From positions 41,432-105,431 of the forward strand of contig JACOWW010000002.1 in the NCBI GenBank assembly GCA_016176605.1: DNA of 64,000 nucleotides, read 5' to 3'. Under the pieces are notes generated by a model that worked only from the letters and a program-made list of their open reading frames with translations, made no database searches and was not told the DNA's origin. The DNA is from Candidatus Saccharimonadota bacterium (GTDB taxonomy: Bacteria > Patescibacteriota > Saccharimonadia > Saccharimonadales > UBA10212). Both the position numbers and the translations under genes were made by a program. Position 1 is the stretch's first letter. Each line of letters begins with the position of its first letter. Below, piece by piece: positions 21,391 to 63,860 of the stretch.

Positions 21391-21771
21391 TTATTGTTCT
21401 CGGGCTTCTTCGGTTTTTACTGCCTCACCGTTGCCCAATTTCTGAGCTTGAGGTTTTTTCGATTTTTGACTAACGACTTTCGACTTACGACTAGCTGACG
21501 ATGCAGCTTTGGTTGCCTTCGCTGCTTCGGCAGCTTTTTGGCGGGCCTTAAACTTGTCTACACGGCCTTCGATGTCAACGATACGCTCCTCGCCAGTGAA
21601 ATAAGGGTGTGAGCTGGAAGAAATATGGACTTTGACCAATGGGTATTCAACGCCGTCCAAAGTGATAGTTTCTTCAGCCTCGGCGGTCGAGCGGGTCAAA
21701 AAAGTAGTACCGTCGTTACTATCCTGAAAAACAACCGGCCGGTAGTTCTTGGCGTGTATATCTTTTTTCAT
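21391..21771 (-). CDS. rpmE: 50S ribosomal protein L31 type B with C-terminal extension
   Basis: MKKDIH..YRPVVFQD, ISSSSHPYFTG, GRVDKF. Confidence 0.95.
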   Translation of the reverse strand: MKKDIHAKNYRPVVFQDSNDGTTFLTRSTAEAEETITLDGVEYPLVKVHISSSSHPYFTGEERIVDIEGRVDKFKARQKAAEAAKATKAASSASRKSKVVSQKSKKPQAQKLGNGEAVKTEEAREQ

Positions 21772-21876
21772 CCCGTTAGAACCTCAAAAGACCTACATTG
21801 TTTATCAGCACTTTGAAACGAGCACGCGTGTTCAAACACCGCGCAAAGTTCGGAAGTTAAGTGAGTTCTAACGGGA
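21772..21876 (-). mobile_element. 105-bp MITE-like element at the rpmE start codon
   Basis: Ends CCCGTTAGAAC / GTTCTAACGGG, flanked by duplicated ATGAA; homologous to 33384-33488. Confidence 0.8.
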
Positions 21877-21922
21877 TTCATAGCTCGCACAGTATAACTT
21901 TTTTACTCTGTTAGGTCAATGA

Positions 21923-22034
21923 CGCTCGCACCATTCAGAAAAGTGTGCGTTTCGCGCCGGGTAGCCTCCCGCCCGCAGGTCAGTCGACTCGGGCTGCACT
22001 ACGCTTGACCCACTCTTGTTGAATAATGCTCGCT
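21923..22034. repeat. dispersed structured element, family B (long form)
   Basis: CGCTCGCACCAT...CGCGCCGGG..CTCGGGCTGCACT...TGCTCGCT, similar to 57253-57360. Confidence 0.65.
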
Positions 22035-22246
22035 TAGTAACCCTGCGAACAACATCTACTCAGGTTAGCTCCGATGCCCGGAAAAGCTAGGGGCTCGCTT
22101 GACAGCTACTGTTTTACATCATTCACTACCTTGGTAGTCTCTGCCATGCTCCAAAAATTATCAGGCTTGCTTAACAATCAATTGTTCAGCATAAGCAATT
22201 TACTTGTTTGAAATTTCATGTTAATTTCGTTCTACAAGGAGATCTT

Positions 22247-22789
22247 ATGGATTTTGAAGGTTTAAAAGTTAAAACAGCTGAAAAAGAAAAACAGGACGAG
22301 AGGTGGTTTAAATCGAAGATGATCGAAGGCTATGGAATTATAATTCAACAATTCGGGGAGCTTGCAACCCTTCTGCAATCTTCGGAAATTAACCTAGGAG
22401 AGATGGAAAGTACTATTCACCAGCCATCCGGCATGGCAATCGCCCAAATAGAAGTTGGTAATAGACATGGTTTACTAGCGTTTGGCGGAGTGGGTCCAGA
22501 AAGCAATTTTACTGTTCACTATAGCTTACGTTCCATAGACTCTATGCTACGTTTCCCAGTAATAGATGAGGTCTTTGGTATAGACTCACGATATTGGCAA
22601 GATCGTGAACACTGGGATAGTTGGGATATCGCAGCAGTAGATGGAATGGTCGGCACCATGTTAGAAGAAGCTCCTAAAACTCTAGCCATGCTTATCGAAG
22701 CGGCGAAAGATCCTGATTTAAATGATCCTGAACTGGCCGAGCGAGTCCGCAGACACTACGAAGAACGTGATTTGCAAGAAGCCATCTAA
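22247..22789 (+). CDS. hypothetical protein
   Basis: Open frame with SD AAGGAG before ATG 22247. Confidence 0.7.
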   Translation: MDFEGLKVKTAEKEKQDERWFKSKMIEGYGIIIQQFGELATLLQSSEINLGEMESTIHQPSGMAIAQIEVGNRHGLLAFGGVGPESNFTVHYSLRSIDSMLRFPVIDEVFGIDSRYWQDREHWDSWDIAAVDGMVGTMLEEAPKTLAMLIEAAKDPDLNDPELAERVRRHYEERDLQEAI

Positions 22790-22809
22790 TCTGTTAGACT
22801 TCTGAGGTT

Positions 22810-22935
22810 AAATTAAGCAGTGAGGTTTACCCACCAAACTTTCTTTGAAAGTTCAGGCGGGCGAGAATCCTCCTAGCTGAATCCGTGTAGGATCAGACGG
22901 GCAGAACTTCACGAAGTGGAAGGATTAATATATAC
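22810..22935 (+). promoter_or_regulatory. structured rpsB 5' leader (possible S2 autoregulatory element)
   Basis: Long leader with stems (GTGAGGTT..AACTTCAC); the location matches known rpsB leaders. Confidence 0.3.
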
Positions 22936-62110: not shown

Positions 62111-62112
62111 AA

Positions 62113-62214
62113 ATGCTGCGGATTAAGCAAATAGTAATTAGCAATCAGAAATTAGCAAAAATGCTTGTTCCTAGTTCCTATTTCCTACTTTCTGCTCCTG
62201 AAAGGAGCTTCTAG
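62113..62214 (+). other. 7-bp periodic spacer carrying a 33-aa bridging ORF
   Basis: ATG 2 nt after the upstream stop; TAG overlaps the next GTG by 1 nt. Confidence 0.6.
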
Positions 62215-62600
62215 TGGCTCGCATATTATTTATTGAGCCGGATCGCATATTGGGCGCCAACGCCAAAAGGATTATGAAGCGGGCAGGGCACGGCGTTGAT
62301 TGGCACGTCGACCCGCAGGCAGCCATGGATAGCGCGGATTCGATTCGGCCGGATATCGTTATCCTAGACTTGATGCTTGCCAGCCGTTCCGGCGTGGAGT
62401 TTTTGTACGAATTCCGCAGCTACCCGGAGTGGTCGGAGGTGCCTGTTATAATTTATAGCAGTGTCCCAGCCGAAGAGTTTAACGCCGACTATATCGGCTT
62501 TAACCAGTTGGATATCGCCGCCTACCACTACAAACCGGCGGCCACGATTGCCGAACTCTTACGATCCGTCGACCGTATCTTGCAGCCAGTTTCACGATGA
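62214..62600 (+). CDS. single-domain response regulator
   Basis: ILFIEPD, PDIVILDL, SGVEFL, YKP. Confidence 0.9.
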   Translation: MARILFIEPDRILGANAKRIMKRAGHGVDWHVDPQAAMDSADSIRPDIVILDLMLASRSGVEFLYEFRSYPEWSEVPVIIYSSVPAEEFNADYIGFNQLDIAAYHYKPAATIAELLRSVDRILQPVSR

Positions 62601-63301
62601 AACATCGTCAATTCACTACAAAAGGCATAATCCTGGCCCGGACAGACTTCGGTGAAGCTGATCGTATCTTAACTTTCCTGACGCCGGACCATGGAAAGGT
62701 GCAGGCTATCGCTAAAAGCGTGCGCAAAAGTCAAAGTAAATTAGCTGGCGGCATCGAATTATTTTCTGTCAGTGACCTGACGTTGATTGTTGGACGCGGC
62801 GAAATCAACACGCTTATTTCTTCGCGGCTAGTTAGACACTGCGGAAATATCGTCAAAGACCTTGGGCGCACCAAGCTGGCCTACGAATTCCTAAGGGTTA
62901 TAAACAAGGCCACCGAGGACAAACCAGAAGAGGCTTACTTTAAACTGCTGGGCGGGAGCCTAGAAGCGCTCGATGATCTGGAGCTCGAGCCAGAACTAAC
63001 AGCGCTTTGGTTCGACATGCAGCTTTTGAAGCTAGCCGGCCATATGCCTAACTTACGCACCGATTCTTACGGCGCCAAGCTGACGAAGGTAAAATCGTAT
63101 AGTATTGATTTGGAAAAAATGCGCTTCGAACCCCGCCCGCAAGGAACCGGTTCATTTACTGCGAATGATATTAAATTTTTGCGTCTCGGTTTTAGTGCGT
63201 CTAAACCTCAGACTATTCATAGAATAAATGGCGCGGACAAAGTAGCTGTTGTCTGCCAGCCCCTTATCCAAACCATGCTCAAATCCCACGTTCGCACATA
63301 A
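62597..63301 (+). CDS. recO: DNA repair protein RecO
   Basis: GIILARTDFGEADRILTFLT..GKV..IAKSVRK. Confidence 0.95.
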   Translation: MKHRQFTTKGIILARTDFGEADRILTFLTPDHGKVQAIAKSVRKSQSKLAGGIELFSVSDLTLIVGRGEINTLISSRLVRHCGNIVKDLGRTKLAYEFLRVINKATEDKPEEAYFKLLGGSLEALDDLELEPELTALWFDMQLLKLAGHMPNLRTDSYGAKLTKVKSYSIDLEKMRFEPRPQGTGSFTANDIKFLRLGFSASKPQTIHRINGADKVAVVCQPLIQTMLKSHVRT

Positions 63302-63354
63302 ACTTAATTCGCAATAAGATTCCGCGTTAGGTCGGTGGATCTAATTGTTGTTTG

Positions 63355-63576
63355 CTAAGCCACTCTTCGGGATTCGGGCGCAGAATTATTGCGGACAAGC
63401 ACTAGTCGAGCGACAGCTTGCTTGCCAACATCATGCGCAAATTCAGCTCTATCTTGTTCTACAGCTACTGTTGGAGGTTCATTAGCTTCTCGTCGAGCTC
63501 TAGTCTCTTTATGCTCTAGTTGATGATTAACGCTGTCAAAAAAGTTATGTTGTATACGGTTGCCTGGTGAGCGCAT
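63355..63576 (-). CDS. hypothetical protein
   Basis: 73-aa ORF with ATG, no recognisable motif. Confidence 0.4.
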   Translation of the reverse strand: MRSPGNRIQHNFFDSVNHQLEHKETRARREANEPPTVAVEQDRAEFAHDVGKQAVARLVLVRNNSAPESRRVA

Positions 63577-63707
63577 GTTTATTTTCTTTCAATCTTACAA
63601 TATGTTTCATTATATCACTTATGCATTGCTAATGCAAGGCAAAAATAGCCGTAATTTACTAAAACGTTTATAATCTGTGCTTAAGATGATTAAAGTAGGA
63701 ACGAAAC

Positions 63708-63860
63708 GCTTGCATTTGGATTTAGAAGCTGTTTTCTTGGCGAGCAACGGAGTGAGACGTACGGGAAGGTACGTTGAATGAGTAGCGCAGACAAAAAACA
63801 ACTTATGGACCAAAGGGCTGGCGGGTTTCAGGCTCCGCCTGGGAGCAGGTCAGCCGGTGC
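63708..63860 (+). repeat. family A structured element, copy 6 (at the glyQS 5' end)
   Basis: Shared core; terminal stem GCTTGCA..TGCAAGT. Confidence 0.75.

Follow-up and report, generated by a model that had tools for sequence, protein, structure and literature searches.

Upstream reading frames at six genes of a Saccharibacteria genome as probable footprints of small mobile repeats that copy the start codon

Introduction

The palindromic mobile repeats known from Rickettsia are tolerated in coding regions since one of their phases is open, and translational coupling by termination-reinitiation at ATGA or TGATG gene overlaps is reportedly a described system. Here, we analyze a stretch of 64,000 nucleotides (the window; positions 41,432 to 105,431 of contig JACOWW010000002.1, assembly GCA_016176605.1) from a Candidatus Saccharimonadota bacterium, in which six genes, rpmE, MPG, msrA, a nuclease gene, ftsE and glyQS, are each preceded by an upstream open reading frame (uORF) that crosses a repeated element and stops at the start of the gene. 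We propose that the six uORFs are probably the traces left by small, non-autonomous mobile repeats of three families, at which the start codon has been copied and the ribosome reads through the element and reinitiates on the gene.

Repeats of comparable form include the Correia/NEMIS elements of Neisseria. According to the available portion of a 2024 review of prokaryotic transposable elements of the miniature inverted-repeat type (MITEs), they are bacterial MITEs, i.e. short, non-coding, multi-copy sequences with terminal inverted repeats and target-site duplications, which form hairpins in mRNA and influence the expression of neighbouring genes (PMC10969869). In that same portion of the review the term “start codon” does not occur (PMC10969869), and our literature searches gave no account of repeats that target start codons. 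As to translation, a second source, in the part available, states that termination-reinitiation works only where the two frames overlap or are separated by a very short spacer (PMC10666635). The published distance dependence fits both spacings described below, a −4 overlap and a +4 spacer.

Results

Six upstream frames close at gene starts

The six junctions listed in a preliminary description of the window are all present when read from the sequence, and the three element families said to lie behind them were recovered: family A at rpmE and MPG, family B at msrA and the nuclease gene, and family C at ftsE and glyQS (Table 1). The start codon within the overlap is GTG in the nuclease gene and ATG in the other five. 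Six junctions out of six is far above the chance level of about 0.1 per gene estimated on a crude genome-wide map of open reading frames (ORFs), where 326 of 826 starts read NTGA and 84 of those 326 terminate a frame that begins with ATG and has 30 codons or more, a count that includes real overlapping genes. A seventh element copy in the window, an intergenic member of family C at about 55330–55500, forms no such frame.

Family A copies sit on start codons

Family A elements are 55–108 nt long, with terminal inverted repeats of 11–13 bp and a 5-bp target duplication, ATGRR. Both ends, ATCCCGTTAGA(AC) and (GT)TCTAACGGGAT, are present in 18 paired copies in this genome (728 kb, 7 contigs) and in 57 in relatives. 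The right terminal repeat, TCTAACGGG, contains a conserved TAA (TAAcgggATG), and the interiors encode the uORF only, without a transposase gene. At rpmE the terminal repeats ATCCCGTTAGAAC/GTTCTAACGGGAT pair as a stem of 13–14 bp; in the family, the A and U of the gene's AUG are held in the stem of the paired repeats. With its inverted repeats, target duplications with empty sites, and short multi-copy form lacking an internal transposase, family A has the sequence attributes of a MITE.

Allowing at most one mismatch per 9-mer end, we obtained 28 pairs in this genome and kept 18; the ten that were dropped comprise eight long pairs (296–1224 nt), which join ends of different copies or match by chance, and two short pairs whose flanks do not match. 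A stricter pattern was present in 16 of the 41 related genomes and, within the same family, in 14 of 24; the reversed control pattern gave 0. The full set of 75 copies combines the 18 with all 57 hits outside this genome, which come from 15 relatives. Seventy of the 75 lie directly at the start codon of an ORF with 75 codons or more, and in 57 of these 70 the duplicated 5-mer is identical on both flanks.

The first 66 copies fall on 53 distinct genes. In this genome, the targets encode L31, MPG, DnaB, PheT, a class II aminoacyl-tRNA synthetase, an amino-acid-kinase-family protein, PilB, PilM, a sortase and a HIT protein. Pfam profiles begin in the first residues of these target genes, so that the real start is the downstream ATG and needed genes can carry the insertion. 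Of the 4664 ATGRR sites in the genome, 206 lie at predicted starts, 532 are intergenic and 3926 are inside genes; 16 of the 18 copies occupy starts, against about 28% expected if all non-genic ATGRR sites tolerated insertion alike (binomial p = 1e-7). Either homing to starts or loss of copies elsewhere could account for this enrichment. Some genes carry different subfamilies in different genomes (for example 103, 106 or 73 nt at G000 C7:151412, L030 and L046, where G000 is the present genome), which suggests either that a start was hit more than once or that the interior was exchanged between terminal repeats that the subfamilies share. Of the 36 copies of the main subfamily, 30 lie in one orientation relative to the gene and 6, including those at rpmE and MPG, in the other.

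No family A repeat pair that encloses a gene within 1500 nt, as an autonomous partner would, was found in this genome. The assembled contigs of four DNA runs, from which this DNA may stem, cover the elements over 21000–40500 and contain no informative joints; a short-sided joint at 21786–21862, considered as evidence of excision, was set aside, since it most likely arises from other copies that share the terminal repeats. Among RNA runs, none was listed as containing the rpmE region. Exact 14-mer matches in genome contigs were, among those listed, mostly chance hits in unrelated phyla and give no usable measure of range. Outside the window, at C7:348785–348909, a tandem pair of family A-type elements separates pheS from pheT; one frame starting at the old ATGA junction crosses both elements and closes at a TAA that lies 4 nt upstream of the pheT ATG. 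A junction of similar kind, head-to-head, is seen at C7:387480–387560.

The family A frame is open toward the gene and closes at its start

Read in the direction of the gene from the upstream ATG copy, the frame ends at −7 in 49 of the 70 copies (at the TAA of the right repeat, 4 nt before the ATG), at +1 in 12 (at the TGA of ATGA) and at −14 in one (MPG); five copies contain an early stop, and three copies of 66 nt run in frame into the gene. The claim of the preliminary description that all 5′ insertions end in an (A/G)TGA overlap therefore describes the six window cases and is too broad for family A overall, of which only the 12 overlap exactly. A stop at −7, +1 or −14 is found in 62/70 copies in the gene direction versus 11/70 in the opposite direction, where 52 stop early (Fisher p = 5e-19). 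In the uORF phase, 60 of 66 interiors contain no stop, compared with 14 and 2 in the other two phases and 13.0 in shuffles; the three phases of the opposite direction are free of stops in 13, 25 and 17 of 66. In both orientation sets of the main subfamily, it is the gene-direction frame that is open.

Element length is matched to the type of start codon. Fifty copies have a length of 1 mod 3, 15 of 2 mod 3, and five of 0 mod 3. A 2 mod 3 copy can stop at the start only on ATGA, so this class requires ATGA starts: 14 of the 15 have one, versus 27 ATGA and 22 ATGG under the 1 mod 3 copies (p = 0.006). The sole exception is the copy at MPG, which has its own internal TGA 14 nt upstream. At MPG, the start at 33474 is part of the element and precedes the ancestral start at 33489, with which it is in frame, by 15 nt. 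The decarboxylase-type gene that precedes MPG formerly ended at the TAA in ATGGATAA, where the MPG start overlapped the gene end.

We considered whether the uORFs might be incidental, with ribosomes initiating directly at the downstream AUG on Shine-Dalgarno-like motifs and the near-start stop being just a part of the conserved terminal repeat. Such motifs do precede the ATG of the gene in some copies: GGAGG occurs 4 nt before ATG 33474 (MPG) and 6 nt before ATG 49154 (ftsE), GAGGAG precedes the msrA ATG in relative G023, and several family A ends carry GAGG 10 nt ahead of the ATG. The TAA, moreover, does belong to the conserved repeat TCTAACGGG. However, incidental frames leave unexplained the stop-free uORF phase in 60/66 interiors where 13 are expected, the closed opposite direction, and the pairing of 2 mod 3 copies with ATGA; the element-borne motif and the AUG, in addition, are both sequestered in or at the stem, and a Shine-Dalgarno-like motif lies upstream of the old start at only 8/66 sites. 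We therefore consider this explanation unlikely. Selection for a stop at or next to the start, pointing to termination-reinitiation, appears well supported by four lines of comparison: the dependence of frame openness on direction, the relation of length class to ATGA, the conservation of the msrA and secY arrangements across genera, and the re-creation of an ATGA at glyQS, the last two of which are described below.

Families B and C form stop-start junctions in other ways

Family B is a structured repeat with compensatory pair changes, present in 30/41 genomes and flanked by long duplications of variable length (14 to about 60 nt). Of 36 copies that were examined, most lie between genes or at gene ends. 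Copies whose duplication takes in a start codon have a frame that crosses the element and closes in a 4-nt overlap, as at msrA, the nuclease gene, secY and two more genes (L066 and L080). The msrA duplicate, 36610–36650, was also recovered as direct repeat D14 in the direct-repeat listing of the window. In G023 the linker sequence of the msrA arrangement differs, and the length, the frame and the ATGA are the same. The secY uORF, found across three genera, ends in an overlap in this genome and in G012, and at −8 in G017. At four loci of relatives (L056, L063, L057 and L066) one boundary of the family B duplication coincides with an ORF boundary, the ATG at a gene start or the stop codon at a gene end; selection or the insertion mechanism could place the edges there. 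Just upstream of the msrA uORF, a palindrome, ATTC(C/T)(A/C)A(T/A)ATTCTGCAGAATATTGGAATAA, occurs twice (36277–36306 and 36566–36595, 289 nt apart) and flanks a small ORF; it looks like an operator.

Family C is present in 15/41 genomes. Its uORFs in front of genes end at +1 (ftsE in this genome), +1 (G015) and −7 (G035). Inside genes it is translated in frame: in UvrD of this genome (contig C5, L110) and in LigA, S1, Der, an Ogt-like protein, TsaD, UvrC and KhpB (loci L098, L099, L103, L104, L107, L109 and L111), it splits or extends Pfam domains in these eight proteins and adds a peptide of about 60 residues, ..EQRTEAYxKYDEG... A riboswitch or T-box function for family B or C was considered and set aside, as both have many copies in unrelated contexts.

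The in-frame copies of family C, together with the three 66-nt, 0 mod 3 fusions of family A (3/70), could be taken to mean that the upstream AUG and the gene form one protein, either through an N-terminal extension or through ribosome hopping between the identical copies over the hairpin. Identical 5-mers do flank the hairpin, a layout that recalls the bypassing of phage T4 gene 60. Against one protein stand the lengths of family A, 65/70 of which are not multiples of 3, and the stops that precede the AUG of the gene; hopping needs no open interior, yet the interior has been kept open. This makes the one-protein explanation highly improbable.

Empty sites in relatives point to leaderless starts

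The rpmE gene of G001, G003, G004 and G023 has no element and reads TTGACC, 17 nt, TATACT (or TATAAT), 7–10 nt, ATGAA; here, the same promoter and ATGAA are followed by the element and a second ATGAA. The −35 and −10 boxes lie 7–10 nt before the rpmE ATG in five relatives. At the rpmE locus of G002 (L086), a 42-nt in-frame block unrelated to family A, another small insertion on that start codon, separates the conserved promoter-side ATG from the rpmE ATG. For ftsE, the sequence TATACT, 7 nt, ATGATTTT is found in G001, G002, G004 and G023, directly after prfB in G002 and G004; here, a block of 182 nt, consisting of family C and the duplicated ATG, lies between the upstream ATG and ATGATTTT.

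The glyQS start lies 8–11 nt after TATAAT in G001 and G023; G002 is also without the element and has no such box, and G003 carries a family C copy in front of ATGAGCGTG. In the present genome the downstream glyQS ATG is lost, and a change of AAGGAG to AATGAG within the element has produced a new ATG with an ATGA overlap of its own. The nuclease N-terminus of G004 and G002 (MAYKRWR../MVYEKWR..), 6 nt after a TAGAAT or TACAAT box, corresponds to the upstream copy in this genome. Finally, msrA is without an element in G002, and in G001 a family A copy occupies the same start codon; the −10 box ahead of msrA is found in G023 and G001 as well.

At rpmE, ftsE, glyQS and the nuclease gene, the empty sites thus share a context, namely a −10 box about 6–11 nt before the ATG and no obvious Shine-Dalgarno motif. 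Across family A, a −10-like box lies 3–12 nt before the upstream ATG at 29/66 sites, versus 47/206 of the ATGRR genes (p = 2e-4). The affected genes look leaderless, as judged by promoter conservation in relatives and not by the consensus scan of the region (see Discussion).

The preliminary description had offered two interpretations, selection for reinitiation or a uORF-plus-structure control device acting on core genes. As to the latter, a uORF and hairpin co-opted as a leader that tunes the translation of core genes would be in keeping with the hairpin that holds the AUG of the gene, with the age of some insertions (msrA and secY are conserved across genera), and with the different subfamilies found on the same start codons in different genomes. 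The targets, however, are 53 functionally unrelated genes; presence of the element varies among close relatives, down to species of one genus; and the only conserved parts of the encoded peptides are those that derive from the terminal repeats. Neither the gene-specific conserved leader, regulatory codons and alternative structures of an attenuator or leader peptide were seen, nor any match to an Rfam family (0 hits at the gathering threshold over the whole window, and chance-level hits only in 36400–39700). Regulation of this kind is thus quite improbable, and of the two interpretations only selection for a stop at the start is backed by the comparison. Since the repeats are mobile, with target duplications, and present or absent among close relatives, the six uORFs are better described as insertion scars than as dedicated leaders.

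Features and other repeats of the window

The coordinates of the six junctions and the associated genes are collected in Table 1. Repeats of other kinds are also found in the window. The octamer AGGGTCAT is present ten times in tandem at 458–553, and 6150–7308 contains 6–7 tandem copies of a 159-nt unit (about 64–94% identical), with related 40-nt words at 3536 and 6012–9422; the latter region is probably a repeat-rich surface-protein gene. Intergenic runs of the heptamer GTTTACC/GTTCACC follow genes at 12902, 49848 and 53538, one of them just after ftsE. An intergenic AT-rich motif of TAGnAAnTAG words stands just before gene starts at 13890, 30149, 45359, 50945 and 62125, with a complement-like partner about 60 nt later (repeat families D5 and D6).

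Table 1. Junctions, elements and adjoining genes; positions are those of the window
Feature	Position	Strand	Support
rpmE promoter TTGACC-17-TATACT, 9 nt before upstream ATG, leaderless-type	21891..21919	-	Read in sequence, consensus scan, relatives
rpmE uORF, 37 codons; upstream ATGAA copy (21881-21877), through family A, to TGA 21770-21768 overlapping ATG 21771	21768..21881	-	
Family A MITE core at rpmE, CCCG..CGGG, 104 nt	21772..21875	.	
rpmE (ribosomal protein L31), start at downstream ATGAA copy	21391..21771	-	Pfam PF01197 match from residue 1
Ornithine/diaminopimelate (Orn/DAP)-decarboxylase-type gene upstream of MPG; present stop TAG 33390-33392 inside left terminal repeat	32208..33392	+	
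MPG uORF; upstream ATGGA copy, through family A, to TGA 33475-33477, 14 nt before ancestral MPG ATG; overlaps in-element ATG 33474	33379..33477	+	
Family A MITE core at MPG, 104 nt, same orientation to gene as rpmE copy	33385..33488	.	
MPG (3-methyladenine DNA glycosylase) from ancestral start ATGGAT	33489..34106	+	Pfam PF02245 match from residue 9
msrA uORF, 53 codons; old msrA start and 13 codons (duplicate 36610-36650), then family B, TGA 36769-36771 overlapping ATG 36768	36610..36771	+	
Family B structured repeat core at msrA	36657..36735	+	
msrA	36768..37283	+	Pfam PF01625 match from residue 5
TAAAAT -10 box, 6 nt before nuclease upstream ATG 39390	39378..39383	+	
Nuclease uORF, 52 codons; original N-terminus MAYHRWRSPPYEPGQKTPYK, then family B, TGA 39546-39548 overlapping GTG 39545	39390..39548	+	
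Family B structured repeat core at nuclease	39449..39529	+	
PD-(D/E)XK nuclease gene, starts with second copy of duplicated N-terminus	39545..40336	+	Pfam
TATAAT, 7 nt before ATG 48972, putative ancestral leaderless ftsE promoter	48959..48964	+	
ftsE uORF, 61 codons; family C in its coding phase (..EERTEAY..), TGA 49155-49157 overlapping ATG 49154	48972..49157	+	
ftsE-like ABC ATPase, GGAGG 6 nt upstream of ATG 49154	49154..49834	+	Pfam
Family C, third window copy; intergenic, stops in every phase, no coupled uORF	55330..55500 (approx.)	+	
glyQS uORF, 31 codons; ancestral glyQS start (TATAAT 63669-63674) into family C, TGA 63779-63781 inside element	63686..63781	+	
Family C at glyQS, inserted after old glyQS ATG; internal AAGGAG-to-AATGAG change gives present ATG 63778	63689..63867	+	
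glyQS 5' end, runs off window; first ~30 residues element-encoded, conserved GlyRS from ~residue 31	63778..63999	+	Pfam (GlyRS)

Discussion

The sequence shows that, after insertion, the original promoter has stayed with the upstream ATG, often as a −10 box 6–10 nt before it, and the gene with the downstream ATG. Based on these observations, we propose the following sequence of events. On an mRNA with a short leader or none, ribosomes would begin at the upstream AUG, translate through the element and thereby melt the stem of the terminal repeats. They would terminate either at the TAA that the right terminal repeat supplies (TAAcgggAUG) or, where the start reads AUGA, at its UGA, and then reinitiate on the gene. 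On needed genes, only those insertions and variants with an open frame and a stop at the start would survive. Family B arrives at the same geometry through long duplications (14–60 nt) that cover the start codon and the first codons, and family C through a built-in open phase, being otherwise tolerated in frame inside proteins. The presence of prfB in the genome (Pfam) implies that UGA should be a stop here; the alternative that TGA is read as an amino acid was set aside on this ground, and the frames differ anyway. Translation of the uORFs, and dependence of the genes on it, we infer from the sequence.

Several points weigh against this proposal. First, stop-at-start geometry is not obligatory in family A, as the 5/70 early stops and the 3/70 in-frame fusions demonstrate. 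Second, the p-values treat the copies of family A as independent; the copies share descent, so independence is overstated. Third, the gene calls come from a crude ORF map, and the promoter consensus scan of the region gave 25 hits versus 21.7 in shuffles, i.e. no excess. Fourth, the two DDE transposase families that were searched for, PF01609 and PF00665, are absent from the five genomes covered. Finally, copies with a Shine-Dalgarno-like motif before the ATG of the gene may initiate directly.

Beyond the six genes, one may tentatively entertain a broader idea: that in Saccharibacteria such elements home to start codons (ATGRR, preferably at leaderless 5′ ends) and are rendered harmless by read-through and restart, as a translational counterpart of introns and inteins. 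If the elements do home to starts in this way, an imprecise deletion would silence the gene, so that insertions on essential genes would be trapped and later reused or replaced at the same starts.

Were the proposal of read-through and reinitiation correct, selfish DNA would persist in extremely compact genomes on the starts of essential genes (dnaB, pheT, aminoacyl-tRNA synthetases, ribosomal proteins) with their expression preserved. It would also bear on gene calling in the candidate phyla radiation (CPR), with respect to start codons, spurious small ORFs and N-terminal extensions, and on leaderless translation and reinitiation in these bacteria, for which the insertions would provide more than 50 independent natural “experiments” on the stop-start geometry that reinitiation tolerates. 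Cultivable and transformable Saccharibacteria reportedly exist, which makes the idea testable.

Among known systems, the Correia/NEMIS repeats resemble family A in their short multi-copy form, terminal inverted repeats, target duplications and hairpin. Family A differs in that it targets the start codon itself (ATGRR), keeps one phase open and places a stop 4 nt before the rebuilt start, and in that no partner transposase was found for it (two families, five genomes). As in translational coupling at ATGA or TGATG overlaps, the stop falls on the next start or only a few nucleotides from it (62/70 family A copies and the six window cases); unlike in those overlaps, the upstream frame is no gene and appears to be read-through of a mobile element, often from a leaderless 5′ AUG, and the coupling would follow from the arrangement of the frames. 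Family C, in frame in eight proteins, is like the Rickettsia palindromic elements, as are the 66-nt copies of family A; the majority of family A copies, like the six window cases, form, in contrast, separate upstream frames that stop at the start of the gene.

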